Source: Chiloscyllium plagiosum (Eukaryota). From it: DNA of 64,000 nucleotides. The stretch spans positions 14,395,784-14,459,783 of the forward strand of contig NC_057751.1 of assembly GCF_004010195.1 (NCBI RefSeq), written 5' to 3'. Positions 9,522-61,408 of this stretch are shown here, in pieces. The translations under genes were made by a program, and so were the position numbers. The notes below the pieces were generated by a model. It was not told the origin of the DNA, did no database searches, and worked only from the letters and a program-made list of their open reading frames with translations. The first letter of the stretch is position 1; each line of letters opens with the position of its first letter.

Positions 9522-9812
9522 GGTAGGAGAAAGTGAAGATTGCAGATGCTGGAGTACCTATCCAAAAACCCAACAGATTATCCCAACTTTATGATACTGT
9601 TCCAAATACTAGCAAAAATCCACACATACATGCCTTGGCACAAAAGCTAAAATCAAACCCAGGGTCTTACAGGAGAGAAAAAATGTGGTGCTGGAAAAGC
9701 ACAGCAGGCTGGGCAGCATCCGAGGAGCAGGAGAATCGACGTTTCGATTCCTGAAGAAGGGCTTATGCCCGAAACGTCGATTCTGTTTTTCCAGCACCAC
9801 ATTTTTAAACTC
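9522..9812. mobile_element. Fold-back PLE-derived short element with a 14-bp TSD and a hammerhead motif
   Basis: TSD TAACATCC(C/G)GGTCA at 9508-9521 and 9813-9826; inverted arms GTGGTGCTGGAAAA...GAATCGACGTTTCG / CGAAACGTCGATTC...TTTTCCAGCACCAC. Confidence 0.8.
9749..9780 (+). ncRNA. Minimal type-I hammerhead ribozyme motif (family A), core intact
   Basis: TC-CTGAAGA-A-GGGC TTAT GCCC-GAAAC-GTC-GA: CUGANGA box, 4-bp stem II, GAAA box, loopless palindromic stem III (ACGU), GUC triplet; stem I only 2 bp. Confidence 0.65.
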
Positions 9813-9984
9813 TAACATCCGGGTCAACCTTTTCTGTACCCTCTCCAAAGCAACCACGTCCTTCTGGTAGTGTGGTGACCAGAACTGTATGCAACATTCC
9901 ACGTGTGGCTCAACTAAAGTTCTACAAAGACTCAGGAGATATCCCTGTCAGGAAATGCTGGCACAAATTGTAGGTTAAATACGT

Positions 9985-11530
9985 TGTGGATGAGACCAAA
10001 TCCCTTCAAAATACATGAAGAAGGTAGCCTAGATCCTAACTGCTTCTAATTTTATAAGTAAATGTAAGGTGTTGCTTTCCAGATGCAATTCACTTGTCAA
10101 TCAACTCGATGGTAAGCAAAACACAATTTATTCATAAACTCGAGTTAAAATCCCACAAGAGAAAGAATAAGGAAAATAATTGACTCAGTTGCAACTCTAT
10201 CGGAAATCTTAACAGAATATTAGATTCAGGAACTTTTACTAATTAACCGTTGCAAAATAGTAACATCCCAAAAACAGATCCTTGGCAAAAGGCAACTTTA
10301 AAAAACAGATTGTCTCACATATAACTCCAGCAAAGGGAAGAGCTTTCAACAAAAGCTGAAAGAGGGGAAAAATAGCTTCCGTTTCTTCAAGACCTCGGCA
10401 CCGACTGCCACTGAAAAATGAAGGGACTAAAAATCCTGGTCCTGTGAGGGCTTCGATTGTTCCAAAGAACAAAGAACATTTACAGCCCAGGAACAAGCCC
10501 TTCGGCCCTCCAAGCCTGAGCCCATCCAAATGTACTGTCTAAACCTGTCGGTCAATTCCTAAGCACCTGTATCCCTCTGCTCCCCACCTACACATGCATT
10601 TATCCAGACGCATCTTAAATGAATCTACCGTGCCTGCCTCTACCACCTCTGCTGGCAACACGTTCCAGACGCCCACCACCCTCTGTGTGAAGTACTTACC
10701 ATGTGTATCCCCCTTAAACTTTCCACGTCTCACCTTGAAAGCGTGACCTCTCATTGAATCCTTCACCCGGGAAAAAGCTTGTCTCTATCCACCCTGTCTA
10801 TACCCGTCATGATTTTGTAAACCTCAATCAGGTTCCCCCTCAATCTCCTTTTTTCTAATGAAAAGAAAGCTGACGTACTCAACCTCTCTTCATAGCTAAC
10901 ACCTTCCATACCAGGCAACATCCTCGTGAACCTTCTCTGTACCCTCTCCAAAGCGTCCACATCCTTTTTGTAATGCGGCGACCAGAACTGTACACAGTAT
11001 TCTAAATGTGGCCGAACCAATGTCTTGTACAATTTTAACATGATTATATTCTAAATGCGGCCGAACCAATGTCTTGTACAATTTTAACATGACTTGGCAG
11101 CTCTTATACTCAATACCCCCTCCAATGAAGGCAAGCATACCATATGCCTTCTTGACCACTCTATCCACCTGTGCAGCCACCTTCAGGGTACAATGGACCT
11201 GAACTCCCTGATCTCTCTGCCCATCAACTTTTCCCAAGGCTCTTGCGTTCATTGTATAATTCGCTCTAGAGTTCGTCTTGCCGAAATGCATCACCTCACA
11301 TTTTTCTGGATTGAACACCATCTGCCACTTCCCCGCCCAACTCTCCAAAATATCTATATCCTCCTGTATTCTCTGACAGTCCCTTATGCTTTCTGCTTTA
11401 TAACTTTTAAGAAAAAACAAGGCCTCATGATTTCATTGGCTTTCCAACTAGACAGCTCGCCACCTCAGTCTTAAAAGCTGTCTTTAAAAAAAAGGACAAA
11501 ATAACCTCTTAAAGTCAATGTATCGTCACA
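9985..11530 (-). mobile_element. Solo-LTR-like repeat split by a CR1 insertion (10465-11395)
   Basis: Shares GACCAAATCCCTTCAAAATA...AAGAAGGTAGCCTAGA(T/C)CCTAAC...CCTTGGCAAAAGGCA...GTCACA with 25045-25822, and in reverse with 28150-28630 and 61490-61690. Confidence 0.6.
10465..11395 (-). mobile_element. 5'-truncated CR1-type LINE 3' end
   Basis: KWQMVFNPEKCEVMHFG, LYKTLVRPHLEYCVQFWSP, FTQRVVGVWN; internal ~49-bp duplication near 11000-11090. Confidence 0.92.
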
Positions 11531-11848
11531 AATAGGAGGGAAACGCTGTGAAGTGCTGGTGACACACAGATCCCTTATGCTTTCTGCTTTATAACTTTTA
11601 AGAAAAATGATTTCATTGGCTTTCCAACTAGACAGCTCGCCACCTCAGTCTTAAAAACTGTCTTTAAAAAAAAGGACAAAATAACCTCTTAAAGTCAATG
11701 TATCGTCACAAATAGGAGGGAAACGCTGTGAAGTGCTGGTGACACACAGATTCACTTCAGTCCCAGCTCCCCCTAAGGGGCTTGACACCACTTTGAATAC
11801 AGTGCCCAAATGAAGCAAGCTGCCTTAATTCTCCTCTCTGCCCGACAG

Positions 11849-12004
11849 GCGAAGATGGATAACCAGGTGTTGGCCTATAAAGATCTGGCTGCAATCCCGA
11901 AAGACAAGGCAATACTGGAGATTGAGCGGCCAGACCTGATGATCTACGAACCACATTACAGTTACTTCTGTGCAGAGAGACCGGAGCCAGTGGGGTCTGC
12001 TGAG
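11849..12004 (+). CDS. DMTN: Dematin coding exon 3 (AKMDNQVLAYKDLAAIPKDKAILEIERPDLMIYEPHYSYFCAERPEPVGSAE)
   Basis: Near-identical to human AKMDNQVLGYKDLAAIPKDKAILDIERPDLMIYEPH; CAG acceptor, GAG|GTACAT donor; 156 nt. Confidence 0.97.
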
Positions 12005-12074
12005 GTACATTGTTTTGCTGGCAAGAAGTGGCGAGTTTTCTACAGAGCTCTGAGCTTTGGATGTGGCTGTGTTT

Positions 12075-12695
12075 CAGTCATAGAGTGATAGAGTCAAAGA
12101 GATGTCCAGCCCAGAAACAGACCCTTCAGTCCAACTCGTCCATGCCAACCTAGATATCCTAACCTAATCTGGTCCCATTTTCCAGCACTTGGCCCATATC
12201 CCTCTAAACCCTTCCTATTCATATACCCATCCATATGCCTTTTAAATGTTGCAATTGTACCAGCCTCCACCACTTCCTCTGGCAGCTCATTCCACACACG
12301 CACCACCCTCTATGTGAAAAAGTTGCCCCTTAGGTCTTTTTTATATCTTTCCCCTCTCACCCTAAACCTCTCATTCTGGACTCCCCACCCCAGGGAAAAG
12401 ACTGTCTATTTATCCTACCCATGCCCTTCATGATTTTATAAACCTCTATAAGGTCACCCCTCAGCCTCTGACGCTCCAGGGAAACCAGCCCCAGCCTCTC
12501 CCTATAGCTCAAACCCTCCAACCCTGGCAATATCCTTGTAAATCTTTTCTGCACCCTTTCAAGTTTCACATCTTTCTGATAGGAAGGAGACCAGAATTGC
12601 ATGCAATATTCCAACAGTGGCCTAACCAATGTCCTGTACAGCCGCAACATGACTTCCCGATTCCAATACTCAATGCTCTGACCAATGAAGGAAAG
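12075..12695 (-). mobile_element. CR1-type LINE 3' fragment
   Basis: LYRTLVRPLLEYCMQFWSP...LRGDLIEVYKIM...VRVWNELPEEVVEAGT; GAGTCATA-like tail. Confidence 0.92.
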
Positions 12696-13670
12696 CTCTG
12701 TCAGCCGCTAACTTTAGTATCAATAGCTATTTGAACTGGCTGATCCTGCTCCTGCCCTTTACCAACATCTGCACATTGGTGAGATATCATTGTTACGTAG
12801 AATGTTATAGGGTCATCGTATCATGGAGACATCATGGCCCAAACGAAGGCCATTCAGCCGACTGAACCAGTTCGTTGCAGACCAATCCAGCTCAGTCAGT
12901 TTCAGTCACCACCCAGGATCCAGCTCCTAGTGGATTACCTAACTGATTGAGTACTGCCAGATCAGAGCTTGCCGAGGGTGATCCCAGTTTAACTCTGAAT
13001 TGGCAAACCAGTCCAGCATTGCCCCTGACCTCGAAAAGGAAGTGATAAGGCCTTCCAGTGACGCAGTTGCAACAGTGTGAATTGCTATCAGTCCAAAACA
13101 TCTGGGCCAGAAGGCGGCTCCTGTGTTGACAGGACCCCTGGGACTTCCACAGTCAGAGACTGGGCTTCAGAACAGACACTGAAACTGCAGATAGTGGTGC
13201 GTTTTGTTTCTGAGGATGAATTTTGAGCAACTTTACAACGACAGAGACACCGTGGATGTCTTTGTCGACCACTGTGAAAACACGCGATGCATTTTGTGCG
13301 CATGTTTTCCATTGACTGATTTATTGTAGCCACATAACGAAAATAATGTTCAGATCTTTCACTCACATGGCTGGTCTTTTGCAGTAAGTATTCAGCCAGT
13401 CAAGTCGTTGCCCATTATAGGACAACCTGAGACCAATGACAAATCTCTGGTGCAGTAAATCTATCTGGATCCATTTTCCATATTTTACAAATGAAAGTCC
13501 AAATGATAGTGGACTCTTTGTGGACCTTAAGTGGTAGCTCAACTCAGAGCATAGCAACGAGCAGAAAATTTCGGGTCATGGCTTTGTGGAGGTTGTCTTT
13601 AAATGTGTTTCCATTTATTAAAATGAGACTTCAGATTATTCATTCTAATTCATGTCCTTTTCTTCCGCAG

Positions 13671-13715
13671 CGCTCACAGTCACCACGTCCGATGTCTCCT
13701 CTCACCTACCCTGAG
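13671..13715 (+). CDS. DMTN: Dematin coding exon 4 (RSQSPRPMSPLTYPE)
   Basis: TTTTCTTCCGCAG acceptor, GAG|GTAAGG donor; 45 nt; aligns with human RSLSPKSTSPPPSPE. Confidence 0.93.
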
Positions 13716-13958
13716 GTAAGGTGGAAGGATCAATCCTCATTTTATGAACTGATCTGTTATGAAGCATACTCATTTCCTTATCCACCAAAGCAGGTTCAGA
13801 AATATCCTGGGATCTAAGGAACTCTTGCTGCAGCCATCTTTCCCAGGATTCCTTGCTCAAATCCCTCCAATCAGGTTTCCAGTGAGGTCACAGTACGGAA
13901 ACAGCTTTCAGCAAAGCCTCAAATGACCAATGTGAAACTGTGGTGAAACAGTCCCCCT

Positions 13959-14320
13959 TGGATGCAGGTTTGCTCGCTGAGTTGTAAGGTTCATTTCCAG
14001 ACGTTTCGTCACCCTAGAGAATTCCTAGAAATGTGGCATTCCAACCGGAACTCTATCAACAAACACATCGAGTTAGACCTGCATCTGCCACCCCCTGAGA
14101 AAAAGAACAGGAAATGACATCACCACTGGAAATAACATCAACAACCCAAAGAAACCCAAACATATTCATAGAAAGCAGGAATCATCAGCAGTGCTTTGCC
14201 CAGAGGCCCACTGAAGATGTTACCTTATAGGGTGACGAAACGTCTGGAAATGAACCTTCCAGCTCAGCGAGCAAACCTACATCCAGAACCTCAACCTGCA
14301 AATCTTCTCAAAACTCGCTA
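13959..14320 (+). mobile_element. Penelope-like element 3' end/pLTR (family B) with an inverted 5' arm and a 13-bp TSD
   Basis: TSD AAACAGT(C/T)CCCCT at 13946-13958 and 14321-14333; 13960-14015 is the reverse complement of about 14229-14284; homologous to the GIY-YIG-encoding copy at 55335-56530. Confidence 0.85.
14208..14247 (+). ncRNA. Minimal type-I hammerhead ribozyme motif (family B), core intact
   Basis: CCA-CTGAAGA-T-GTTACCT TATA GGGTGAC-GAAAC-GTC-TGG: 3-bp stem I, 7-bp stem II, loopless ACGU stem III. Confidence 0.72.
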
Positions 14321-14324
14321 AAAC

Positions 14325-15895
14325 AGTTCCCCTCTCTATCTTCTATAATAGAATCCCGACAGTGTAGAAATAGGCCATTCTGCCCATCTAATCCACACTG
14401 ACTCTCTAAAGAGTATCCCACCCAGACTCAACCCTCCTATCCTATACCTGTAACTGTGCCTTTCCCATGGCTAATCCACCTAGCCTCTACAGCCCAGGAT
14501 ACTATGGGCAGTGTGGCATGGCCAATCCACCTAACCTGCACATCTTTGGACTGAAACAGCAGGCGTTTCCTCCAATTCACCATTCGGAAGAGCCAAGCCA
14601 GTGTCTTAGAACATGGAACATAGAACAGTACAGTACAATACAGGCCCTTCGGCTCATGATGTTGTGCCAAGCATTCATCTTAATCTAAGATCAACCTAAC
14701 CTACACACCACTCAATTTACTACTGTCCACATGCTTGTCCAGCAGTCGCTTAGATGTCCCAAATGTCTCTGACTCTACTACCATGGCTGGGCAGTGCCTT
14801 CCACCACTCTCTGCATAAAGAACCTACCTCTGGCATCTTCTCTCTCCCTTCATCCAATCACCTTGAAATTATGACCCCCTCCGACTGCCATTTCTGCCCT
14901 GGGGAAAAGTCTCTGGCTATCCACTCTATCTGTGCCTTTCATCGTCTTGTACACCTCTATCAAGTCACCTCTCTTTCTTCTTCTCTCCAGTGTGAAAAGC
15001 CCCAGCTCTCTCAACCTCCCCTTCAAAAGACAAGCCCTCCAATCCAGGCAGCATTCAGGTAAACCTCCCCTGCACTCTCTCCAAAGCATCTCCATCCTAC
15101 CTATAAGGAGGTGAAGTTCCCCTCTCTATCTTCTATAATAGAATCCCTACAGTGTAGAAATAGGCCATTCTGCCCATCTAATCCCCACTGACTCTCTAAA
15201 GAGTATCCCACCCAGACTCAACCCTCCTATCCTATACCTGTAACTGTGCCTTTCCCATGGCTAATCCACCTAGCCTCTCCACTATGGGCAGTGTGGCATG
15301 GCCAATCCACCTAACCTGCACATCTTTGGACTGAAACAGCAGGCGCTTCCTCCAATTCACCATTCGGAAGAGCCAAGCCAGTGTCTTAGAACATAGAACA
15401 TAGAACAGTACAGTACAATACAGGCCCTTCGGCTCATGATGTTGTGCCAAGCATTCATCTTAATCTAAGATCAACCTAACCTACACACCACTCAATTTAC
15501 TACTGTCCACGTGCTTGTCCAGCAGTCGCTTAGATGTCCCAAATGTCTCTGACTCTACTACCATGGCTGGGCAGTGCCTTCCACCACTCTCTGCATAAAG
15601 AACCTACCTCTGGCATCTTCTCTCTCCCTTCATCCAATCACCTTGAAATTATGACCCCCTCCGACTGCCATTTCTGCCCTGGGGAAAAGTCTCTGGCTAT
15701 CCACTCTATCTGTGCCTCTCATCGTCTTGTACACCTCTATCAAGTCACCTCTCTTTCTTCTTCTCTCCAGTGTGAAAAGCCCCAGCTCTCTCAACCTCCC
15801 CTTCAAAAGACAAGCCCTCCAATCCAGGCAGCATTCAGGTAAACCTCCCCTGCACTCTCTCCAAAGCATCTCCATCCTACCTATAAGGAGGTGAC
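14325..15895. repeat. Near-identical tandem duplication of about 780-790 bp (HE1 tail + CR1 3' end)
   Basis: 14325-15114 and 15115-15895 match almost base for base; the second copy has a 15-nt deletion. Confidence 0.92.
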
Positions 15896-17480: not shown

Positions 17481-17780
17481 TTTCTGGGAGCAGTTTCAGT
17501 TCCCCCATCTCCCGTGAGTTTGGTCCCTGCGTCCAGTATTCGACTCCCACCCTGGCTGGCAAGGCCTCAGTTTGGCTCTGCCGAGCTATCGCACTTGGAT
17601 CTTCCAGGATTTCCTCCTGGCCAGTCCAGCTGTCAGCCGGATCCAAGAGTCCAGTGGTGGAGAATTTCCTCTGGCTGTTCCCCTTGCTTGGGTGGCCCCA
17701 GTGCAAGGGTTGTCAGCAAGGAGCTGTATCAGGGGAGGGCAGCACACACACGCTAACTGTGAAACTCTGTCTCCTTTCAG

Positions 17781-17907
17781 TACATGATGTATAAGGAGAG
17801 CCGGGAATGGGCAGATGGGAAGTCTCCGGGATCCACGATGGGATCGGCCTGCAGTCGCCGTAGCTACCTGTCCACTGGGAGTCTCCCACACCACTTCCAC
17901 AGGCCAG
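17781..17907 (+). CDS. DMTN: Dematin coding exon 5 (YMMYKESREWADGKSPGSTMGSACSRRSYLSTGSLPHHFHRP + G)
   Basis: CTCCTTTCAG acceptor, CAG|GTAGGG donor; WAD.KSPG and SLPHHFHRP match human WADSRSPG and SLPHFHHP; phase 0 to 1. Confidence 0.92.
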
Positions 17908-18064
17908 GTAGGGGCACAGCATGTGATTTGACTGTTGCCTGAATCCTCACACTCAGCTCACATTCGGCAGCGGGTTCACTGGTCACATTCTGAAGGATTT
18001 TATTCGCCAACAAATAAATTACAATTAACTGAACATCATAAAGAACAAGCGTGTGATGTTGAAC

Positions 18065-22369: not shown

Positions 22370-22610
22370 AACCCCACGTTAAAAAAACAGGAAATGACAT
22401 TATCACAGGAAATGACATCTACCAACCCAAAGAAACCCAAACATATAAATAGGAAGCGGGAATCAGCAGCATTGCTTTGCCCGGAGGCCCACTGAAGATG
22501 TTAGCTAGTAGGGTGACGAAATGTCTGGAAATGAACCTTCCAGCTCAGCAAGCAAACCAACATCCAAAACCTCAACCTGAGCTACAAATCTTCTCAAAAC
22601 CCACATAAAT
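22370..22610 (+). mobile_element. Penelope-like pLTR fragment (family B) with a hammerhead variant at 22489-22528
   Basis: Homologous to 14100-14320; CCA-CTGAAGA-T-GTTAGCTAGTAGGGTGAC-GAAAT-GTC-TGG. Confidence 0.82.
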
Positions 22611-22925: not shown

Positions 22926-24597
22926 AGTCAGAATTGAATTGAATCAGCTTTATTGTCACATGTACTCAAACGAGTGCAGTGTGAAGTTTACAAAACACCA
23001 CTTACAGCGCCCTGCGAGGTACAAGTTACCTCAGCACAGACTCTTCAGTAAAAGTTATGAGAAAAAATATGGATAAGGAGTTGGCATACAATGTGCGCAA
23101 ATGTGAAATTACCGACTTCGACTGGGAAAAATAAAGCAACGCTGATGTGAAATGGTGAGACTATTCAGTGTTGCTGTTCAGTGGCATTGGGAAGACAGAA
23201 AGTTAACCTACAGCAATGAGAGAGGCAACCCGGAATTACAATTTATCACAGGGGGCTTGAGACAACCAGTCTTGCCACAAATTGGTGAGGTTATGTCTGG
23301 AGTATGAAGTATAGTTTGGTCTCCATATCTGAGGAAGAATATTCTCAATGTGGAGGGGTACAAAAGATGTTTGTGAGACTGATTCCTGAATAGAATCCCG
23401 AGTGTGTGGGGCCCATCCAGTCCACACCAATCCTCCGAAGAACAACCTACTCAGACCCAGCTCCTATCCCCGTGACCCTGCATTTCCCATGGCTAATTCA
23501 CTATCTATATATCTCTGGACAATACAGAGCAATTTAGATTCTGGGAGGGCTTGACAGGCCAGATTTTGAGAGAATGGGGCTGGAGAGTGCAGAATTAGAG
23601 GGAATAGTGATAGCTAATTCTGACTGTTGAGGAAAATATGTCTTCGCTCAGAAAATTATAAATTAAAGGACCCTAACCCAAGGAGCCATGAATGCTCAAT
23701 ACTGAGCGTATTCGAGGCTAAGATCAGTAAACTGGTTGACATACATCCTGCCAATTAGAGTCACTGCATATTATTCCTTCATCTTCCAATACACATACAA
23801 TTTCCGAAACAGATCAATAATTTGCCTTTACTTCCACAAGCTACAAATTCAGTTTCTTGTCAAAAGCCCTTTCAAAATCCTTATCAATAACACTGACAGA
23901 CAATTCACCTCTTCAAAAAAAGAATCCTCAGGCATGACCTACCCTTTCCAAATCCGCACAGGCTCTCTCTGATTCCGTGAAAAAGTTTTAACTTGTTCAC
24001 TCAGTCCCTTAACTACGCATTGGAATAAGTCTCATCAAGGCCAACTGGACATTTCCCTTCTGTGAACAATTTTGAATCGAGGAATGACAAGCACAACTTT
24101 CCAAATGAAAAGAATAGGGAAACGTTGCTGAGTTGAGAGATTTGGAAGAAAATTGTTCAGGCACGTGTAATAGCCTCCCCTTGGTTCTTTTAAAACCTTG
24201 GGATGGAAACCATCTGGTCCTGGGAGTTTGTCAGTCTTTATAGTGGGATTAATTTCTTTGTTACTGTTAGTTTCCTTGCACTAATAATGGTGCTTCCCTG
24301 TCTCTACTTCAATATTGGTTCCCCTGGGCTATCCGACACACTATTTTACTCTGCAGTATATACTGAAGCAGTCTTCATTCATCATCCTAACAACCATTTT
24401 TTTTCCCTCATTTAATTGGTATAATATTTTGGCAGCCTTTCTCAAGTTCTTTGTGTCGGTTCTGTCACCTTTTGGTCCTGCAGCAGTGTATGTGAAAGTA
24501 CATTCTCACCCCTTTATCTTCATGGACCCTCCAGCTCCTCACTGCAACTAGTTTCAGTACAGAAGCTCACGGCCTCCATTTTACCTTCTTGTCCCAG

Positions 24598-24747
24598 AAC
24601 CATTGACAGTGCTTCCACAGAGTAAATACATCGAGGATCTCATCATTGAATCATCAAAGTTCCCGGCTGCCCAGCCTCCAGATCCCAACCTCCCGGCGAA
24701 GATTGAGACAGAATACTGGCCTTGTCCTCCCTCGCTTGCTGTCGTAG
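24598..24747 (+). CDS. DMTN: Dematin coding exon 7 ((E)PLTVLPQSKYIEDLIIESSKFPAAQPPDPNLPAKIETEYWPCPPSLAVV + G)
   Basis: Near-identical to human IEDLIIESSKFPAAQPPDPNQPAKIETDYWPCPPSLAVV; CCCAG acceptor, GTAAGA donor. Confidence 0.97.
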
Positions 24748-24829
24748 GTAAGACGCAACCAACAAGCCTGTAATCTTACCGTGTTTTTACCATCGGTTTG
24801 ACTTCAGAACTGTGGATGGGAAGGGACCG

Positions 24830-26400
24830 GGCCTCAAAGGTATTCACCGACCTCCGTGATACCCCCTTGGTCCGCGCCCCCTCTCTCGTAACATTTCCCC
24901 ACCCGTGCAATCGCAGAGGCGTCACACTAGCTCATTTGCCTCCCTCCCCCTCGCTATCCAAGATGAAGCAGTATTTGAATTGTATTCCTTTCAATTCAGT
25001 TTACAGCTTTCACTGCTCACAATACAGGCTCCTTCACATTGGTGACAGGGCTATAGATCAGACCAGGCCCCCTCAAAATCTTTTAAGAAGGTATCTCGAC
25101 CCTAACGTTTTCTTATTTTAAAAGTACATGTCAAATGCTGTATTCCAAATGCAATTCGACTGGTCAAACTACTTGATGTTAAGCACGTAATTTATTTAAA
25201 CACTCCAGCTAAAACACAACAAAAGAAAGAAGAACTTAAAATAATTTAGCTCTATTGGAAAACTTAATAGACTAATAAATACAGTAACTCTTTCAAATGA
25301 ACTGTTCCAACACAGCAACATGACGTAAACACATCCCTTGGCAAAAAAGGCATACTCAGAAAAATAGATTTGTCCCTTGGATAACCTAGCAGCAAAGAGA
25401 AACTCCAGCTTCTAGCTGTAGCTGGGAAAGGCAAAAGATGGCTTCTAGTTCTTCAAACCTGCAGCAGCTTCTCCCGTGTTGAGACTTTAAGCAACTGCTT
25501 CAGGCTAAAAAAAAAAGCAAGGAATTCTATCTGAGAGAACTGGCCACACCCGTCCAGGCTGCTTCTATTGTTCCAACTTTTAAAAAAACATCCCGTGTTG
25601 AGACTTTAAGCAACTGCTTCAGGCTAAAAAAAAAGCAAGGAATTCTATCTGAGAGAACTGGCCACACCCGTCCAGGCTGCTTCTATTGTTCCAACTTTTA
25701 AAAAAACAACCCAAGGCCCCACAAACTGTTTACGTTACCACAGACAGCCCTACCAATTGTTCAATCTGTCTCTTAAAAGAAACCAGGACAAAATACAACT
25801 CTGAAAGCCGTCGCACTGTCACAATACCAAGCAGAGTCCAGGTGACCACTTTGCGAAACACAGCTGGTCTGTCCGTGGGAATGACCCTAACCTCTCAGCG
25901 GCTTGCCATTTCACAAACCACCCTGTTGTCATTGCTAACCTTCTGCCCTCGGTGCGCTGCAAGGTTTGAACAAAGTATTCTGTAAGCTTGAGGAACAAAA
26001 TCTCATTTTCTGCTGAGGTACCTTACAGCGCAGATGTCTCCATACTGAATTACATAATGTTGGAAAATGACTGCATTATGTCTGTTCTCCATTCTTACAT
26101 TCTCCCCTACTCCCACAACCTCAATCTTGTTGTTTACTTTACCCTGAACAAGAGAGGACCCATTCTCTCCCTTTCACACCTTAACTTACACACTTTTTAC
26201 ATTTCTTCTCCTGTTTTTCCACCATCAACCATTGCCTTTTGCACTGGACCCCTGTCTCTGCCAAAAGTATGACAAAGTACAATTTCCCAACACCTTCCCG
26301 CTCTGAAGAATAATCGTATTAGTCAAAAATGTTCACTCCGTTTCTCTCTCCACAGGTGCTGCCAGACCTGCTGAGCTTCTCCAGCAATTTTCTATGTTTC
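24830..26400 (+). mobile_element. Old Neptune-type Penelope-like element remnant (Zn-finger linker + GIY-YIG), split by a solo LTR
   Basis: PCNRR..., NSVYSFHCSQYRLLHIG before 25045; resumes after 25822 as ...GDHFAKH; 3' end CTCTGAAGAA...GCTGCCAGACCTGCTGAG...CCAGCA. Confidence 0.7.
25045..25822 (-). mobile_element. Solo-LTR-like repeat with an internal ~118-bp tandem duplication (about 25473-25710)
   Basis: GTGACAG...CTGTCACA inverted termini; homologous to 9985-11530. Confidence 0.65.
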
Positions 26401-31148: not shown

Positions 31149-31254
31149 ATCCAGTCCGGACTGGGCAAATTGATCTTGAAGGAGGAGTTGGAGAAATCCA
31201 AGCCGCGAGGGAGGAAATCACGTTCACTTCCAGACCGAACCACAAGGAGTTTCT
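31149..31254 (+). CDS. DMTN: Dematin coding exon 9 (IQSGLGKLILKEELEKSKPRGRKSRSLPDRTTRSF + T)
   Basis: Matches human VTSNLGKMILKEEMEKSLPIRRKTRSLPDRT; TTCTAG acceptor, GTAAGC donor. Confidence 0.96.
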
Positions 31255-32966: not shown

Positions 32967-33280
32967 TTCAGGCATAAGCCCTTCATCGGGAATGTCTTAG
33001 CTCCTCAGATGCTGCCTGACCTGCAGTGCTTTTCCAGCACCACACTTTTCGACTGTGACTCTCCCAGCATCTGCAGGCAGATTCCCTCCCCAAAGCCCAT
33101 TTTGAAGAGAACATCTCTCATATACGTGATATCACACCTGTCATTTACCTGCAACACTTCAGGCATAAGCCCTTCATCAGGAATGTCCTAGCTCCTCAGA
33201 TGCTGCCTGACCTGCAGTGCTTTTCCAGCACCACACTTTTCGACTGTGACTCTCCCAGCATCTGCAGTCCTCACTCTCTC
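32967..33280. mobile_element. Right part of a family-A fold-back element (left part 31545-31600), present as two ~110-bp copies
   Basis: TTCAGGCATAAGCCCTTCATC(G/A)GGAATG...CCAGCATCTGCAG at about 32967 and 33158. Confidence 0.78.
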
Positions 33281-37019: not shown

Positions 37020-37870
37020 CAATAGAGTTATAGACAGTCACAGAGATGGACAGCAGGGAAACAGACCCTTCAGTCTAACTTGTCCATGCCGACCAGATAT
37101 CCCAAATTAATCTGGTCTCATTTGCGAGCAGTTGGCCCATATCCCTCTCAACCATTCCTAGTCATGTCCTTATCTAGATGCCTTTTAAGTGTTGTAATTG
37201 AACCAGCCTTCACCACTTCCTCTGGCAGCTCATTCCATACAAACACCACCCTCAGTGTGAAAAAGTGGCCCCTTAGGTCCCTTTTAAATCATTCCCCTCT
37301 CACCTTAAATCTAGTTTTGGACTTGCCTACCCTGGGTAAAAAGACCTTGACCTGATCCATGTCCTTCATGATTTTATAAACCTCTATAACATCACCCCTC
37401 AGCCTCCAATGCTCTAGGGAACATAGCCCCGGCCTATTCAGCCTCTCCCTATAGCTCAAACCCTCCAACCCTGGCAACATCATTGGAAAGCATTTCTGCA
37501 CGCTTTCAAGTTTCACAACATCTTTCCAATAACAGAGAGACCAGTATTCCAAAATTGGCCTAATTAAGGTACTGTACAGCTACAAGGAGAAAGTGAGGGC
37601 TGCAGATGCTGGAGATCAGAGCTGAAAATGTGTTGCTGGAAAAGCGCAGCAGGTCAGGCAGCATCCAAGGAACAGCTCCTGTTCCTTGGATGCTGCCTGA
37701 CCTGCTGCGCTTTTCCAGCAACACATTTTCAGCACTGTACAGCTACAACATGCTACCCCAATTCCTATACTCAATTCCTATACTGAATGTACAATAAAAA
37801 CAAGCATACCAAATGCCTTCTTTACTACCCTGTCTAGCTGCGACTCCACTCTCAAGGAACTATAAACCTG
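37020..37870 (-). mobile_element. CR1-type LINE 3' fragment hosting the palindromic insertion
   Basis: LEGLSYRERLNRPGLCSLEHWRLRGDVIEVYKIM. Confidence 0.9.
37586..37733. mobile_element. 148-bp fold-back PLE-derived element: perfect 55-bp inverted repeat with 3-nt loop and a 15-bp TSD
   Basis: 37621-37675 is the exact reverse complement of 37679-37733; ACTGTACAGCTACAA at 37571-37585 and 37734-37748. Confidence 0.92.
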
Positions 37871-38302: not shown

Positions 38303-38534
38303 GTGAGTTGGGGGTCGCGACAGGATTCTCACCAGGATTTTGTCCATCCCTGTGACCACAGAGCTGTCAGAGGAGAGTTCAGCCAGAGACTCCCCGGCTG
38401 TCACAGAAGGGCCTGCAAAGGGAGGCCTGTCTTCCCTGACACACTGATTGAAGCAAATGTGTCAATAGCTCAGTATGGTAACACTGATTAGAGCAATGAC
38501 AGGCCAAGTCTGGCCTGAGCCTCAAACAGTACGG

Positions 38535-39040
38535 CACTCCCTCAGTAATGACCCTCTGACAGTGCGGCGCTCCCTCAGTACTGTCCCTCCGACAGTGCAG
38601 CACTCCCTCAGAACTGTCCCTCTGGCAGTGCAGCACTCCCTCAGTCCTGACCCTCCAACAGTGCAGCACTCCCTCAGTACTGTCCCTCCGACAGTGCGGC
38701 ACTCCCTCAGTATTGACTCTCCGACAGTGCAGCACTCCCTCAGAACTGTCCCTCTGGCAGTGCGGCACTCCCTCAGTACTGACCTTCTGGCAGTGCAGCA
38801 CTCCCTCAACACTGACTCTCCGACAGTGCGGCACTCCCTCAGTAATGACCCTCTGACAGTGCGGCGCTCCCTCAGTACTGTCCCTCCGACAGTGCAGCAC
38901 TCCCTCAGAACTGTCCCTCTGGCAGTGCGGCACTCCCTCAGTACTGACCCTCTGGCAGTGCAGCACTCCCTCAGCACTGACTCTCCAACAGTGCGGCACT
39001 CCCTCAATACTGACCATCTGACAGTGTGGCACTCCCTTAG
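38535..39040. repeat. 33-bp minisatellite, about 15 units, running into a Deu-SINE-like flank (39040-39130)
   Basis: 11-aa periodic ORFs on both strands; same unit as 1-215. Confidence 0.95.
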
Positions 39041-39489
39041 TGTGATGCTGGGAGTGTCAGAGATCTCACGTCTCTAGATTGCAGACACAAACACACCACA
39101 ATCTGACTCAGGGTCTTCTTCCACTGAGTGAAAGATTCTTAATCCGGGAATAATCTGGGACAACATTCCTCCATCCATCAACAGCTCTCTGTAATGTCCT
39201 GACACCCCTCTCATTCTGGCTAACAATAACTCCTACTGAAGCATGGCACTTTGTCAGTGAAGAGCGTTGAGGATATTGCTAAAAGATGTCATTTATCAAT
39301 GTTAAGCTTTGTTTCTAATCTCTCTGACTCATAAAGTATTCCCTGTGCAGAGAACTAGCAAACAACTCTGCTGGTGAAAATAACAGGAATTTTCCAATGG
39401 TGTTGGAAAGTTGTATACGTTTGGTGAATGCTGAGCTTTATCTCATCCTTGCTCTGGTGATAAAGCTTGCTTGTTTCATAGCATCCCTA

Positions 39490-44319: not shown

Positions 44320-44394
44320 GTTTACCCGTATGAAATGCTGAAAGGAAGCAGGAGTATGAATCTGCCCCCGGGAGTGGACAGGCCCCGGCTGGAG
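44320..44394 (+). CDS. DMTN: Dematin coding exon 14 (VYPYEMLKGSRSMNLPPGVDRPRLE), headpiece N-subdomain
   Basis: Matches human IYPYEML...KLPPGVDRMRLE; CACAG acceptor, GAG|GTAAGC donor. Confidence 0.96.
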
Positions 44395-44574
44395 GTAAGC
44401 ATGGCAAGAACCTGCCTCTTGGAAACAAGAGGAAGTGCACAAAGACCGTGAAAGCCCATTGGATCAAAGAGACAGGAAGTAGCAGCCAGCAGTTGTTGTC
44501 AGTAGAAGGAACGTGTACAAGGAGGGTTCTTGTGGGAGTTCCCCGACTTGTGAAGCGTGAGGCCTGAGTTCAAG

Positions 44575-49002: not shown

Positions 49003-49215
49003 TAGAGTGGTGCTGGAAAAGCACAGCAGGGTCAGGCAGCATCTGAAGAGCAGGAAAATCGACGTTTCGGGCAGGAGCCCTTCATTAGGAAGGGCTTTTG
49101 CCTGAAACGTCGATTTTCCTACTCCTTGGATGCTGCCTGACTCTGCTGTGTTTTTCCAGCACCATTCTCATCTTGACTCTAATCTCCAGCATCTGCAGTA
49201 CTCATTTTTGCCTAT
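49003..49215. mobile_element. Fold-back family-A element with two opposed degenerate hammerhead motifs and a 12-bp TSD
   Basis: TCAGCCCATTAT at 48991-49002 and 49216-49227; ...GACGTTTCGGGCAGGAGCCCTTCATTAGGAAGGGCTTTTGCCTGAAACGTC... Confidence 0.85.
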
Positions 49216-50340: not shown

Positions 50341-50371
<31 letters not shown>

Positions 50372-53434: not shown

Positions 53435-53797
53435 ATTAGATTTCCCGACAGTATGGAAACAGGCCCTTCGGCCCAAACAGTCCATACCGACCCACCGAAG
53501 AGTAACCCACCCAGACCCATCTCCCTCTGACTAATGCACCTAACACTATGGGTAATTTAGCACGGGCAATCCACCCCAACCTGCACATACCTGAACACGA
53601 AGGGTAATTTAGCATGGCCAATCCACCCTGACCTGCACATCTTTGGACTGTGGGAGGAAACTGGAGCACCCGGAGCAAACCCACGCAGACATGGGGAGAA
53701 TGTGCAAACTCCACACAGACAGTCGCTCGAGGCTGGAATCGAACCTGGCACCCTGATGCTGTGAGGCAGCAGTGCTAACCACTGAGCCACCGTGCCA
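53435..53797 (-). mobile_element. HE1-type SINE inserted into a + strand CR1 fragment (about 53160-54210)
   Basis: SINE head/tail motifs; CR1 sequence continues on both sides. Confidence 0.9.
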
Positions 53798-55334
53798 CCC
53801 TGTTATCAGAAGCGATGAGATAGGCTGGGACTTTTTTCTCCAGGTTCAGGAGTGGCCTTCTCAAGGTTTTCCAATCATGAGTTGTATAGATAAGATGAAT
53901 AGCAGGTGTCTTTTTCCAAGGGCGGTGAATTTCAAGACTAGGGGACATATTTTTAAGGTAAGAGACTTAAAAAAAGACATGATGGGTCATTGTTTTTACA
54001 CAGGGTGAACAGTGTCTGAAATGAACTTCGAAAGGAAGTGGTGGATAGGGGTACAATTACAATGTTTAACAGACATTTGGATAAGTACATGAATAAGAAA
54101 TGTTTGGAGGGATATGGGCCAAGCGCAGGCAGGTAAGACTAGTTGAGTTTGGGATTATGGTTGGCATGGATTGGTTGAACCAATGGGTCTGTTTCCGTGT
54201 GGTATGACTCGAAGATACAAGGTTACGGGCAGAGTGGAGGATGCTGAGATGAGTTTTGGGTTGGTTTCAGAGCTGTGGAGAGAGTGGGGCAGGAGGATTG
54301 GTTTGGGATTGATAACCAAATGGGGGAGAGATGAGGACAACGGAGTTGGTCAAAGACTTTGGAGAAGGGGTGGGGCAGAGGGACTGATTTAAGAATGATA
54401 CAGAGGTCTGGAAAAAGAATGAGGCAAGGGAATTTGTACAAGACTTTGGTGAGAGAGTGTGGGATCAGCTTGGGGATGAGATCAATGCCTTCCCACGTTG
54501 TAAACTAGTTTTGTTCTTTCCTGGCTCCTTCAGCACAGTCTGATGGAGAATATATTTTTTAATAAACTGCTAACACCAACTTTTGAAGAACTGTGCATGG
54601 TTGAAAATAATCCAGAAGCAGCAGAGGAATACATATTTCCCGTTAAGGTCAGTGATCATTTGAGAAGTAGCAGTAAAAGACAGACAATTCAGAGAAATCT
54701 TGATAACAGTGAAGTGATGAGGAAGATAGGACACATGTCTGACTGTAAATTTATCCAGACTGCATATTTGATTTATGTTGGCGTTAAATCTAATTTAAGA
54801 ATCAGTTCGGAAATTCTGATGAAGGAACTGTTCTGGCAATCTACTGATTGCTCAGAGTGTAATATGGATATTTTTTCTAAATGTTCTCCCAATGAAATAC
54901 AGCACCAGAAGGGATGAAGGATGCAAGGCATCTTGTTGGGATGAAACTTGTGTGAATATCACATAGTATGCACAGTGCAGAAATCAGCAAACCCTCTCCC
55001 TGGTCTGCTCCATCCAGTTGAAATGAATTGAGGATCAATGGTTGTCCATTGATCAGAGTCAGAGAGGGCGACAGCATTGAAACAGGCCCCATGGCCCGAT
55101 TTGCCCATGCAAGTCATTTTAGGCGACTCCAACTGTACCATGTACATCATGAACTGTTTGTTCCTTCCCCAACTTAATTTATCAAAGGATTCTCTTTAGC
55201 TCTGCTTCCACTCACGTGCACACATCATTCCCCGAATGGCATTTTCCTTTTTCTTTCTTTCAAGTGACACAGGCATCAGCAAGGCCAACTATTGCTGCCC
55301 ATTCTAATTGCCCAACTCGAGAGTGCTGGATGTT

Positions 55335-56530
55335 AGCGAGGTTTGAGAAGGTTTGTAGCTCAGGTTGAGGTTCTGGATGGAGGTTTGCTCACAGAGCTGG
55401 AAGGTTCATTTTCAGACGTTTTGTCACCATATGAGGTAACATCTTCAGTGAGCCCCCAAATGAAGTGGTGTAGCCTGCTTTCTATTTATATGCTTGAGTT
55501 TCCTTGGGTTAATGATGTCATCTCCTGTGGTGACATCATTTCCTATGGTGATGTCATTTCCTATTCTTTTTCTCAGGTGGTGGTAAATGGGATCCATGTC
55601 AATGTGATAGAGTTCCCGTTGGAATGCCATGCTTCTAGGAATTCTTGTATGTGTCTCTGTTTGGCTTGTCCTGGGATGGATGTGTTGTCCCAGTCAAAGT
55701 GGTGTCCTTCCTCATTGGCACGTAAGGATACTAGTGAGAGTGGATCATGTCGTTTGTGGCTAATTGATGATCATGTATCCTGGTGGCTCGTTTTCTGCAT
55801 GTTTGTCCAATGTAGTGTTTGTTACAGTCCTTGCACGGTATTTTGTAAATGCCATTAGTTTTGCTTGTTGTCTGTACAGGGTCTTTCAAGTTCATGAGCT
55901 GCTGTTTTCGTGTGTTGGTGGGTTTGTGGGCTCCCATGATGCCAAGGGGTCTGACTAGTCTGCCAGTCATTTCAGAGATGTCTTTGATGTAGGGGAGAGT
56001 GGCGAGGGTTTATGGACGTGTTTTGTCTGCTTGTTTGGGTTTTTTTTTAGATTAGATTAGATTACTTACAGTGTGGAAACAGGCCCTTCGGCCCAACAAG
56101 TCCACACCGACCCGCCGACCCGCCGAAGCGCAACCCACCCAGACCCATTCCCCTACACCTAACACTACGGGCAATTTAGCATGGCCAATTCACCTGACCT
56201 GCACATTTTTGGACTGTGGGAGGAAACCGGAGCACCCGGAGGAAACCCACGCAGACACAGGGAGAATGTGCAAACTCCACACAGTCAGTCACCCGAGGCG
56301 GGAATTGAACCTGGGTCTCTGGCGCTGTGAGGCAGCAGTGCTAACTACTGTGCCACTGTGCCGCCCCGGTTTGTTGCTGGGAAATCGGAGGACTGTGTTC
56401 ATTGGGGACCCGTTCTTTTTGCTTACATCGTCTCGGTGATTTTCCTCTGCTCTGCGTAATTCCTCTGTGCTGCAGTGTGAGCTGTCTTCTTGAATTCTAA
56501 TTCATTGTGTAGTAGTTTGGATACTTTGAC
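55335..56530 (-). mobile_element. Penelope-like element (family B): GIY-YIG endonuclease remnant + pLTR with a mutated hammerhead (55412-55451); HE1 nested at 56048-56368
   Basis: Minus-strand TNGIYKIPCKDCNKHYIGQTCRKRATRIHDHQLA; CTGAAGATGTTACC...GGTGACAAAACGTC (G12 changed to A). Confidence 0.9.
56048..56368 (-). mobile_element. Young full-length HE1-type SINE
   Basis: (AGATT)n tail; GGTTT on both flanks. Confidence 0.93.
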
Positions 56531-57519
56531 AAACCTGCCTCCACCACACCTTGTTGGACAAAGGGATGTTCTTGGGGGGGACAAAGTGAAGCAAAAGAGT
56601 CCTAACATTCTCTGCAACTGTAACACCGCGCATTACCAGTTGATCAGTCAACAAGATTAAGGGGTGACCTGACTGAGTTATGTAACATGATGAACTGATT
56701 CAACAAAGCATGCAGTGAGAAACAATTAAGGGCAAGGCAGTCCATGATGAGGAGAGCACATCCTCAAAATTAGAGTTCAGATACTAGGTTTCGTCAGACA
56801 AAGTATTGTGGCAGTCCCTTCCCAAATTCCTGATGAACTTCAGAGGGTTGGTTGGGCCGAAGGGCCTGTTTCCACAGTGTAGGGAATCTAATCTAATCAT
56901 TTAATACTCTTTTCTGTGTAACAACGACTCAGTTTGGGAATTTTTCATTTGACCTCCAGCAAACAGCAGTGTTTGGGACCTTGCCTCCGCCCCCCCCCCC
57001 ACAAAGAACATCCCTCTGCCCAACAAGGTGTGATCCTTCACCATCAGACTTGCAAGCATCAACGTTTAACAGAACTGCCTAACAGTGTGGCGGAGGCAGG
57101 TTTGTCAAAGTGTTCAAGATGGAACGAGACCCTGATTTGAAAAGGAAGACTACGTACAGTTACAGGGAAGAAGGCACCAGGTGAATTTCTCATTCGGAGA
57201 ATTGATGGGCTGAACAGTCTCATTCTGCTGCGTAACAATTCTGAGGTTGTCCAGTATGATGCTTGGTGTGTGACCCTGGACCCAACTTGACCCGGAAGAA
57301 GTTGATTATTGTGAGTGACTGGTCTCAGTGAGCTCCCGCACTGAACGCCATTCCCATTTTTACTTCTATCCCACTGACCAGAACATCCAGCACTAATCCT
57401 AGACAGGTTGACGATGGAGTGGAAATCACACTGGCCTCAGTAATGGCGACCTGCTGTGCTTCCCCAGCACCACGCTCTAATCTTGACTCCAATCTTCAGC
57501 ATCTGCAGTCCTCACTTTC

Positions 57520-60500
57520 GCCACTTCGACAGAAAAGTCAGCTTAAAAGGATGGAGATGAAGGCTGAAGGTAAACATAGTGAGGAAGGGAGTGAAGGCGA
57601 GCAAAGATATCGTCAGCAGGGGCCAAGTGAGAATCTGTTTAAATATATTGCCTAAATTTGATGGGAAGGATATAGAAGCCTTTTCTCGTCTCAGTTGAGA
57701 AGGTGGTTAAACAAATGCAGTGGCCAGTGACCATGTGGGTTTTGTTGATCCAAACAAAACTTGTAAAGTTAGTGAGGTATTTGCATCCCAATCAGAGGAG
57801 GTATCTGGGGCATGTGAGGAGGTGAGGAAAGTCATTTTCAGTGCATCTGAGCTTGTACCAGAAGCCGACAGATAGCGTTTCAGGAATCTAAGGTGGGACC
57901 CTGATCAAACCGACACTGAGTTTGAAAGGATCAATCAAAGTAAGTTTGAGAGGTGGATAAGGGCATTAAAAATAGTGCAAACCTCTGACGCTCTTCAATG
58001 ATTATTTTGGAGGAGTTCAGAAATTCACTTCCTGAGGTAGTGAGAACTCATGTGGAAGAGGAGAGAGTTAAAACAGTGAGGTTAGCAGCTCCCAAATTCA
58101 ATTTCAATCCGTGAGAGATCGAAATTGGGGCAAAGAGAAATCCTCATGTGGAAAGGGAAAGGTAGATCTCGGTGAAATCATCAGGATAGTGTAGCGCAGG
58201 GTTAAAAAGGAAACCCTTGAAGGGAAAAGAAAAGTTAAAAAGCTCTGGTGTTTTCACTGCAATAAAGTAGGCCACATGAAATCACGGTGTTGATGGGTTA
58301 GGAAAAGCACTGGGAAAATACAGAAACATTTTTACTGCCCTGGACCGCATAAGGATGTAGTTGAATTTTGCCAGACATGTCATACATGTCAGGTAATTGG
58401 AAAACCACAGGCAGTCAGACCTAATCCTGCATTTGACGATCCTTTTACAAGAGTCTTAAATGATCACATAGGACCCCAACCTAAAACAAAAAGTAGGAAT
58501 CAAAAACTCGCAATTTTGCTTTCAGAGATAAGGTGTTTGTGTAAATTCCAGTGATAGGTGAACCTTTTGGAATTAACACAAACACCTTACCTCCGATAGC
58601 AAAACTGCGAGTTTTTGATTTCTTGACTGCTTCTGGAATCATTGTATTTTGTGGTACTTTTAAATGCTGTCCAGCCAACTCCCCCTCTCGATTTAATCAT
58701 CCCCTAAAATTTGACACATCGTCCAAATACGTGGTCTCTGAATTCTGACTTACCCATTTCTCCCTTACCAATTTTAACGGTCTACTCACTTCCTGCCCAA
58801 AAACTAATTCAAATGGACTGAATTTGGTCGATTCATTTGGTGCATCTCTGATGGCAAAAAGTACAACCGGAACTCCTTTATCCTGGATAGTCTTGACGAT
58901 AAGCCCTCAACATGGTCTCTAATGTCTGATGCCATGTTTCTAGCACTTTCTGTGACTCTCATTTGGAGATGCCAGTGTTGAACTGGGGTGTACAAAATTA
59001 AAACTCACACAACACCAGGTTATAGTCCAACAGGTTGTGTGACTGTGGATGAGACGCAGTAGATGGGAAATGTTTTATTCCTAAACTGTCCATAACTTCC
59101 TTGAATAATTTTGATGTGAAGATTGACCTCTGTGGGTAGTCTGTATCTGGTGAAAAACGTGAGTAACTTCTCCCCAATCTTTATACCGGTGATATTCTGT
59201 AACAGAATGGGCTCTGGAAATCCAGTGGACGCATCCATTATTGTTATGATTCCCTACTTTTTGTTTTAGGTGGGGGTCCGACACAATCATTTAAGACTCT
59301 TGTAAAAGGTTCGTCACATGCAGGATTAGGTATTGCTGCCTATGGTTGTCCAATTACTTAACACCTTATCAAGTCAAAAGGAGATTGAGTGAGGTGAACT
59401 GTTTGATAAGGATTCCAGACAGAAGGAAATCTCACAGAGTGCGTCATGTGAATATTCTCAAAAGGTATTTTGACAGGGAAGGAAAGCCGAAGGAGACTGT
59501 GTTACTGGTTGCAACACAGAGGGCAGAACCAAGTTCAGAGGATTCTGAATTGGACATTCCTCAAATTAAATTGGACAATCAGGAAGTTGTCAAAAAATAG
59601 GATAAATCATTGAGTTACCATCTACAGGAGGTATCGCATGGGGAAATACGTGGAAATAGACTGGGAAGTACTAACCTAATTATCTGTGATGTCGAGATAG
59701 GAGATGCTGTCCTGATTAAGCAACATCATTATTGGCTGAACCCCTAAAGTTGGCAGAGGTTCAAAAGGAGATTGAACGCGTGCTCCAAGGTGACATAATC
59801 AAAGTGAGTCACAGTGACTGGAGCTCACCCATAGTAATGGTGCCAAAACCAGATTGTACCCAACGGTTCTGTGTGGATGATCACAAAGTCAATGCATATC
59901 TGATTCTGCATTTCGAAGACTGTGTTAAAAAAGTGGGACAAGCAATTTCTAAGTTTGACTCGCTCAGAGGACACTGGAAGGTACCTTTGTCCGAAAGAGT
60001 GAAGAGAATTTCAGCTTTTCTAACGCTGAATGGACTGTATCAGTTTAAAGTCACAGCATTTGGTATGAAAAATGTACCAGCCACATTTCAGAGACTAACC
60101 AATAAGGTCATTGTCAGATTACCCAATCGTGTTGTATATATGAATGGCCTGGTGTTTTTTTAGTCACACATAGAAGTTGCATTTGCAACATTCATCAAAC
60201 TTGTTGCATCGACTTCGGGAGGCACGTTTGGTGATAAACCTGGTGAAAGGTGAATTTGCTAAAGCTCAAGTCATAGAGATGTACAGCATGGAAACAGGCC
60301 CTTCGGTCCAACCTGTCCATGCTGACCAGATATCCCAACCCAATCTCGTCCCACCTGCCAGCACCCGACCCATATCCCTCCAAACCCTTCCTATTCACAT
60401 ACCCATCCATATCCATGCCCCTCATGATTTTATAAACCTCTATAAGGTCACCCCCTCAGCCTCCGACGCTCCAGGAAAAACAGCCCCAAGCCCGTTCAGC

Positions 60501-61022
60501 CTCTCCCAATAGCTCAAATCCTCCAGCCCTGGCAACATCCTTGGAAATCTTTTCTGAGCCCTTTCAAATTTTGCAACATCTTTCTGATCCCTTCCTGGGC
60601 CATGTTATTGGACATGGACAAATGGCCTCATGGAACGTAAAAACGTAAAAGGTTATTGGGGAGTTTCCCACACCATCGACAAAAACAACAGTACTACGGC
60701 TCCTGGGATTGAGTGGACTTGATCAGAAATTCGGAAAAAAATTTTAGCAGTGAGTCTGCTCCACTCACTGAATTACAAAATAAAGGCAAGAGGTTTCAGT
60801 GGACGGCAGATTGTCAGAAGGCATTTGACAGCCTGAAAGCTGTGTAAACCACTGCCCCAGTATTAGCCACACCTAATCACTATGGCTGTCAATGTGAGTG
60901 ATGGAGGTGTCAGTGCTGTGCTCTTACACGAAGACGGTGAGAAGACAGAAAGACCTATCGGGTATTTCTCCAGGAAACTGAAAATTCATCAACAGATATA
61001 TTCAACAGTTGAGAAGGAGACT
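57520..61022 (+). mobile_element. Decayed Gypsy LTR-retrotransposon internal region, Gmr1-type order (gag, integrase, RT, RNase H)
   Basis: Zinc knuckle CFHCNKVGHMKSRC (about 58250); integrase Zn region DVVEFCQTCHTCQ (about 58355); RT WSSPIVMVPKPD...FGMKNVPATFQRL (59732-60163); RNase H PIGYFSRKL...YSTVEKE (60882-61022). Confidence 0.9.
60270..60588 (-). mobile_element. Young CR1-type 3' fragment inserted in the Gypsy RT
   Basis: Interrupts the KAQV|FLGH motif; near-identical to 63670-63948. Confidence 0.9.
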
Positions 61023-61139
61023 TGGAGGCGGAGAGGTCCTCCCTCTACAAGTCTTGAAGCAGCTCTCTTCCTCCCTCTACAAGTAATCATCTTGCAAGGA
61101 TGCCTTCCATGAAGAAGCTCTCTTTCTCCCTCAACAAGT

Positions 61140-61408
61140 CCTGACCTCTCCGCCCCCACCCCCACTCTGGCCTATCACCCTCACCTTCACCTCCTTCCAC
61201 CTATTGCATTTCCAACGCCCCTCCCTCAAGTCCCTCCTCCCTACCTTTTATCTTAGCCTGCTTGGCACACTTTCCTCATTCCTGAAGAAGGGCTCATGCT
61301 CGAAACGTCGATTCTCCTGGTCCTTGGATGCTGCCTGACCTGCTGCGCTTTTCCAGCAACACATTTTCAGCTCTGATCTCCAGCATCTGCAGTCCTCACT
61401 TTCTCCTA
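61140..61408 (+). mobile_element. Family-A Penelope-like 3' end/pLTR (C-rich tract + hammerhead + terminal segment)
   Basis: The terminal GATGCTGCCTGACCTGCTGCGCTTTTCCAGCAACACATTTTCAGC segment is the same as the arm of the 37586-37733 palindrome. Confidence 0.75.
61280..61311 (+). ncRNA. Minimal type-I hammerhead ribozyme motif (family A), core intact
   Basis: TC-CTGAAGA-A-GGGC TCAT GCTC-GAAAC-GTC-GA. Confidence 0.62.

Follow-up and report, generated by a model that had tools for sequence, protein, structure and literature searches.

A window of 64,000 nucleotides from Chiloscyllium plagiosum (NCBI RefSeq assembly GCF_004010195.1, contig NC_057751.1, forward-strand positions 14,395,784 to 14,459,783; window coordinates are used below, with the strand in brackets) contains seven minimal type-I hammerhead ribozyme motifs. 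We assign these motifs, with a probability of roughly 0.88, to the pseudo-long terminal repeats (pLTRs) of a Penelope/Poseidon-type element, here called family B, and of a likely second Penelope-like family, here called family A, present as 5'-truncated and decaying copies, predicted to be largely inactive.

The window was searched with a descriptor for the minimal type-I hammerhead consisting of CUGANGA, zero or one extra base, a stem II of at least 4 bp, GAAA, a loopless paired NN', UH and a stem I of at least 2 bp. Four strict matches were obtained, at 9751 (+), 14211 (+), 22492 (+) and 61282 (+), and allowing one core change gave seven by adding 972 (-), 49088 (-) and 55448 (-). The seven are exactly the motifs listed in a preliminary description of this DNA, which the independent descriptor thus recovered in full. 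When the 61,612 non-N bases were dinucleotide-shuffled 200 times, the mean number of strict matches was 0.0 (maximum 0) and that of relaxed matches 0.22 (maximum 2). Short motifs that Rfam leaves unscored (a search of the window at E ≤ 1 matched no hammerhead family) could be suspected to be chance matches, but we consider the probability of this negligible given the shuffles and the fixed position of the motifs within repeats that fit a published class.

All seven motifs, with coordinates running from C3 to H17, have one extra base between A9 and position 10.1 and a G10.1-C11.1 pair. A loopless ACGU stem III is common to both families, its 15.2-16.2 pair being C-G in six motifs and U-G in 22492. 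Family A has a stem II of GGGC/GCCC with a loop of 4 nt and a stem I of 2 bp, while stem II is 6-7 bp and stem I 3 bp long in family B; the stem sequences differ wholly between the two. The extra base, the ACGU stem III and the stem I lengths had been described in the same way beforehand. Among the family A motifs, 9751-9778 (+) has an intact core, with a cut site that would lie 3' of 9778, and is located inside a fold-back unit at ~9680-9806; 61282-61309 (+), also intact, has one G-U pair in stem II. The motif at 945-972 (-) carries G8U and a U-A rather than a C-G pair at 2.1-1.1 of stem I, and that at 49061-49088 (-), on the inverted arm of the fold-back unit at ~49003-49206, carries G5A. 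In family B, 14211-14244 (+) has an intact core and an ATG at 14217, whereas 22492-22525 (+), part of a truncated copy at ~22381-22600, has C15.2U together with a G-G mismatch in stem II, and 55415-55448 (-) has G12A and a U-A pair at 2.3-1.3 of stem I where the other two B copies have C-G. The full core plus the C-G stem III pair is retained only by 9751, 14211 and 61282. Earlier coordinates for these motifs stand with one correction: the interval 49069-49098 was about 10 nt off and omitted the 3' part of the core, the real span being 49088-49061.

With seven motifs in 61.6 kb, the previously suggested density of about one per 10 kb holds for the window. The seven undercount the families, since truncated motif pieces at 9745 (-), 14007 (-), 32969 (-), 33160 (-), 49104 (+), 62294 (-) and 31605 (-) are also present, as are copies consisting of the tail alone and, at 26302 (+), ~45860 (-) and ~20285 (+), three decayed members of a third family. 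This family, which is probably older than the others, has a related tail, and what is left of its hammerheads ends in GUU.

Minimal hammerheads in the pLTRs of metazoan Penelope-like elements (PLEs) were described by Cervera and de la Pena in 2014 (PMC4209133), and the class proposed in the preliminary description is indeed this one. In the portion of the paper covered here, the published consensus reads 'NNN CUGANGAH G..C GAAAN Palind NU H NNN', which the window motifs fit letter for letter, and the CGUC end is also seen in fish, lamprey and frog rows. Shared features are the core, the extra base between positions 9 and 10.1, the G10.1-C11.1 pair, the palindromic 15.2-16.2 positions, the missing loop III and the short stem I. 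The published motifs are likewise mainly single ones from truncated elements, some of them close by on opposite strands, and occur in thousands per genome. Unlike most rows of the alignment, family A has shorter stems (II of 4 bp, I of 2 bp), and seven motifs in 61.6 kb, should this density be typical, would correspond to far more copies than the ~4,000 motifs counted in the coelacanth and the 9,000 in Xenopus tropicalis. No shark row occurred in the covered portion of the alignment, and the terms shark, milii and Callorhinchus were absent from two of the three supplementary files. Studies of shark PLE hammerheads were not found in the literature searched, a scope that excluded most subscription papers as well as Repbase and Dfam. 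We conclude that the motifs are shark members of a class known since 2014 and that their local density is high.

The link between motif and element is provided by family B. Its longest copy, 55333-56495 (-), comprises the region just past the reverse transcriptase (RT) core, a GIY-YIG remnant with stops and frameshifts, the pLTR and a tail, and is interrupted at ~56049-56366 by a short unrelated repeat, probably a short interspersed nuclear element (SINE). The broken coding region upstream of the 55448 (-) motif matches proteins with RT and GIY-YIG domains over 55405-56495. Shark proteins with both domains match this broken gene at 65-81%. An open piece of 92 amino acids from this remnant gave a weak match to Pfam GIY-YIG (E = 0.0025, short of the curated cut-off), and 10 of 30 candidate proteins were homologous to it, nine from carpet sharks with 63-81% identity and three with a precomputed RT domain. 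Matches to RVT_1 and weak matches to GIY-YIG were obtained for the homologues P0002-P0004. Since P0004 is a continuous protein that runs from RT through GIY-YIG into the peptide encoded by the family B motif region, gene and motif are tied together in a second species. The CX2-5CxxC linker ahead of GIY-YIG, which in the literature covered separates Neptune and Nematis from Penelope/Poseidon, is absent from the window remnant and from P0002-P0007. These sequence features indicate that family B is the end of a Penelope/Poseidon-type element, an assignment made from the absence of the linker and the order of RT and GIY-YIG. The two Penelope-like families claimed beforehand are hence borne out by protein homology for B, and made likely by insertion anatomy for A.

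Carpet-shark gene models of the Poseidon type other than P0004 were also found to end in a peptide like that of the family B motif region (P0005, P0007 and P0008), and these ends hint at a further family carrying the motif. One of them, P0008, is an isoform model of MAP3K7 with a PLE-derived C-terminus.

A second, 5'-truncated copy of family B at 14017-14320 (+), delimited by tblastn with P0004 and P0005, contains the end of the GIY-YIG coding region, the pLTR with the motif and a tail, and is preceded by an inverted arm at 13959-14016 (-) that covers loop II to +69. In three of three family B copies A9-U-G10.1 spells ATG, from which the cut site would be at +28. The sequence common to the copies stops near +110, while the inverted arm stops at +69. 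This layout can be compared with that of the nearest relative studied, the Anolis carolinensis Poseidon element PAc (Frangieh et al. 2024, PMC11167929), for which the covered part of the paper gives an open reading frame (ORF) beginning at stem II, a cut 26 bp in, priming 111-118 bp in and a tail equal to the stretch between two priming sites. Family B agrees in having an ATG at the start of stem II, a cut 28 nt in (26 in PAc), copies ending at ~+110 (111-118 in PAc), an optional tail between two end points as well as a C-terminal GIY-YIG domain that lacks the zinc-finger linker. The likeness is one of layout and, unlike in PAc, there is no intact ORF in the window. The ATG at the start of stem II is absent in family A, which differs from PAc in this respect.

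Pieces of family A occur at about ten loci in the window, several of them as fold-backs in which an inverted truncated arm is joined to a 5'-truncated direct copy. The 9751 copy adjoins such a 5'-truncated inverted arm at 9680-9747 (-). The copy at ~61140-61407 (+) has a pyrimidine-rich upstream part and a 36-nt tail at 61372-61407. Three fold-back units have target duplications: ~49003-49206 (12 nt), in which the motif of the direct arm is cut off at its 5' end, 62190-62358 (-; ~12 nt), with a 5'-truncated motif carrying G16.2A, and 37588-37738 (-; 15 nt), truncated 3' of the motif. Two near-identical units at 32967-33275 each consist of an inverted partial motif and a direct tail. Two DNA runs of related organisms yielded 107,265 and 84,924 contigs on 61030-61430. 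Loose contig ends fell at 61363, 61371 and 61406-61409, and joints led from 61407 back to 61373, which identifies the tail as an optional unit of 36 nt. The 61372-61407 tail appeared as a separate unit in contigs of two related organisms. A search for the tail pattern in viral contigs gave 0 matches; 29 matches in metagenome contigs were dismissed as chance, none extending beyond ~29 nt and none having the motif.

The insertion anatomy is the same in both families and comprises 5' truncation, an adjacent inverted arm, an optional tail of 36-40 nt and target duplications of 12-15 nt. Such duplications were detected at 4 of the 13 units tested (three in family A and one in family B), all four of which are fold-backs, as compared to 0.4% of 461 control trials with random pairs in which 12 nt was reached. 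In family B, the copy at 14017-14320 is bordered by a 13-nt duplication with one mismatch at 13946 and 14321. Insertions of endonuclease-positive PLEs have been reported to carry an inverted arm and a 30-40 bp tail (PMC8557442, in part), and the units described there resemble ours in the strong 5' truncation, the inverted truncated copy at the 5' end and the placement of the tail at one end, but differ in that the tandem pLTR-ORF-pLTR unit is absent from the window. From this anatomy we consider family A to be a likely second Penelope-like family.

Family A could alternatively be a non-autonomous element of the retrozyme or SINE type that propagates through a short RNA of its own, possibly circular, with the help of PLE proteins. 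Non-LTR retrozymes with type I hammerheads that are related to PLEs, and are argued to derive from PLE pLTRs, have been reported in one chondrichthyan genome (bioRxiv 10.64898/2026.07.22.740005, in part). No ORF link was found for family A, and in related organisms the depth of both RNA and DNA drops steeply just 5' of its core (61282-61295 versus 61268-61281). The published units, however, form head-to-tail arrays with a whole motif in each, whereas no head-to-tail units each with a whole motif were present in the window, where copies are solo, inverted or folded back. Moreover, some family A copies extend at least 140 nt upstream into a common pyrimidine-rich stretch, and their 5' ends lie at various points, some upstream of the motif and others beyond it, as expected of truncation. 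A retrozyme-like origin is therefore improbable in our judgement, and truncated insertions of a Penelope-like family remain the preferred explanation for family A.

Directly 5' of the 61282 copy, at 61022-61139 (+), we observed an inverted piece of ~15 nt from the 5' end of that very copy, together with three direct pieces of 15, 32 and 55 nt that are nested and share one end point. In two related organisms this module is repeated in high copy number, and their contigs connect it directly with the start of the motif at 61275-61278; the module contains a short frame opened by an ATG at 61100. It may represent the start of a family A ORF that was duplicated through successive template jumps starting at a third priming point. 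The nested pieces are one detail for which no match was found in the literature compared. A PLE linker-region remnant at 61698-61940 (-), separate from family A in the window, had 11 homologues with 46-54% identity, two of which contain the CX4CxxC pattern typical of Neptune/Nematis, and by this criterion the remnant points to the presence of a Neptune-type clade. A word search with the Neptune-type fragment gave no match.

To quantify the decay of the copies, we scored ten family A and four family B registers, setting aside N7, loop II and a few subfamily sites. CpG sites deviated from the majority in 15 of 89 cells, compared to 26 of 554 elsewhere (p = 1.3e-4). Excess conservation of core nucleotides, which the preliminary description had put forward as a check, was not seen: changes at non-CpG sites affected 3 of 108 core cells and 23 of 446 others (p = 0.45), so the core is no better kept than the flanks. 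Covariation was limited to single compensatory pairs, with one such pair in stem I of family A, one double change in stem I of family B (a value as high was reached in 156 of 500 shuffles) and no double changes in stem II within a family. The lack of excess core conservation fits dead copies of once-active masters, and the motif is not thereby shown to be false.

Folding predictions point in the same direction. The probability of stem I was ≤0.02 for all seven motifs with at least 30 nt of flank, and the hammerhead homodimer fold was 5.5-18 kcal/mol above the best cofold in every case. Stem II of 61282 is weak, with a probability of ~0.3 in context. For 9751, 14211 and 49088 the models have the core sequestered by an inverted arm; the 9751 copy would pair with its own arm at -25 kcal/mol, the arm covering the 3' half of the core, and the duplex of 13959-14016 with 14228-14286 in the 14211 copy is predicted at -105 kcal/mol. 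Heterodimers of A and B motifs were rejected, as the stems I of the two families do not cross-pair. On these models, the copies in the window are probably dead or mostly unable to cut.

Exons of an AbLIM-anchor-family gene on the forward strand at about 11.8 and 24.6 kb (Pfam AbLIM_anchor; ~11846-11977 (+), E = 2.5e-20, and ~24570-24752 (+), E = 1.8e-9) place the family B motifs 14211 and 22492 in introns, in sense orientation. As the two motifs are located 8.3 kb apart in one gene, have compatible stems I and could form a stem III with one G-U pair, it may be asked whether the host has retained some copies as functional ribozymes for cleaving pre-mRNA, such as a double hammerhead formed by this pair. 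Such a role is extremely improbable: the inverted arm of the 14211 copy would be transcribed first and is predicted to lock its core, 22492 carries both C15.2U and the stem II mismatch, and neither the homodimer energies, nor the level of core conservation, nor the failure of A and B stems I to cross-pair speaks for retained function. We therefore return to decaying, truncated insertions as the explanation for these copies.

Transcription was examined in a single-cell poly(A) RNA run of a related species, of which about 2 in 100 of the run were read. Of the 12.96 million reads, 3,536 mapped to family A, in both directions, and the pattern fits intronic read-through. No pile-up of read starts or ends was seen at the family A cut site in that run, which is a weak test of cutting. 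Among the motif variants listed for related organisms, those represented were N7, a single site in loop II and the change that the window itself carries.

Several points weigh against the assignment proposed here. The sample for the decay test is small, the copies in it were found partly by their cores, the cells are partly dependent on each other through fold-back arms and a duplicate at 33 kb, and the sites treated as free were set aside after the alignment had been viewed. Nine of the 13 units tested had no clear target duplication, with repeats of 6-10 nt only. The folding models leave out the hammerhead tertiary core and proteins, and a single-cell poly(A) run of a related species is poorly suited to revealing a cut. 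Finally, no protein could be linked to family A: one of the three reading frames of the upstream part, used as a query, matched nothing, which is weak evidence. The status of family A as a PLE and its clade therefore depend on anatomy.

The abundance of the motif could be accounted for by the way in which the elements insert. By analogy with PAc (PMC11167929, in part), the element protein would nick DNA and prime reverse transcription shortly downstream of the motif, at either of two sites, which in family B would be at +69 and about +110 from the ATG. Even very short, abortive cDNAs would therefore include the motif, and on this proposal it is priming just downstream of the motif, not host selection, that explains why the motif is so common. 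In the RNA of an active master element, unaided cleavage by the hammerhead after GUC would be weak (inferred from the covered parts of PMC4209133, PMC6765202 and PMC11167929). Stem III would form between two tandem pLTRs via the ACGU palindrome, as set out in PMC4209133 and in a review (PMC6765202), both in part, and the element protein would likely assist; cleavage of PAc required the protein of the element (PMC11167929, in part). The dependence of cleavage on a dimer is inferred from these papers. In family B the cut would be located 28 nt inside the reading frame, separating the ATG from the remaining ORF.

A role for the motif other than cutting is possible, since PAc insertion in vitro did not need the cut. 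The motif in master elements might in that case be a structural or protein-binding signal beside the priming sites, with cleavage being incidental. Mutants of the PAc ribozyme left in vitro insertion unchanged and no PAc RNA-seq reads ended at the cut site (PMC11167929, in part), to which can be added the lack of a read pile-up in the RNA of the related species and a stem I of just 2-3 bp. However, three families whose stems are unrelated all retain the complete catalytic core, the first pair of stem I is not the same in each family and yet still forms (C-G in A, A-U in B), and PAc does cleave, with loss of cleavage in C3/G8 mutants (PMC11167929, in part). We regard a purely structural or protein-binding role as unlikely, if still worth serious consideration, and retain a self-cleaving hammerhead of the master elements as the preferred explanation.

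Self-repeated sequence and N together account for at least 39% of the window. In addition to the two AbLIM-anchor exons, further exons at ~31160-31245 and ~44320-44415 (+) were found by short sequence motifs and look dematin-like. A broken RT plus RNase H region of an LTR (long terminal repeat) retrotransposon at 59295-61030 (+) is interrupted by a repeat derived from the end of a long interspersed nuclear element (LINE) and by the 61282 copy of family A. An array of 33-nt repeats with at least 14 starts is located at 38416-39107. A 96-nt hairpin at 58510-58605, with a weak microRNA (miRNA) match below the family threshold, is perhaps a small inverted-repeat element. Four weak Rfam miRNA matches in the window were rejected, three of which fall on fold-back arms of family A.

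If a density of about one motif per 9 kb is typical genome-wide, the number of hammerhead motifs in this shark would be far above the published vertebrate figures. Taken to its limit, carpet-shark genomes might hold at least ~100,000 such motifs, and sense pairs of the same family within a single pre-mRNA, such as 14211 and 22492, might be so frequent that PLE proteins, when expressed, assist cuts in host introns, which would impose a transcriptome-wide ribozyme load that is switched off by fold-back arms and CpG decay; we consider this scenario very improbable. A shark family of the Poseidon type shares the layout of the lizard element PAc, with a start codon inside the ribozyme and a tail delimited by two end points. 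The in vivo role of the PLE hammerhead is the question the field faces and, while seven dead copies provide no answer, a genome so dense in copies would be good material for addressing it.

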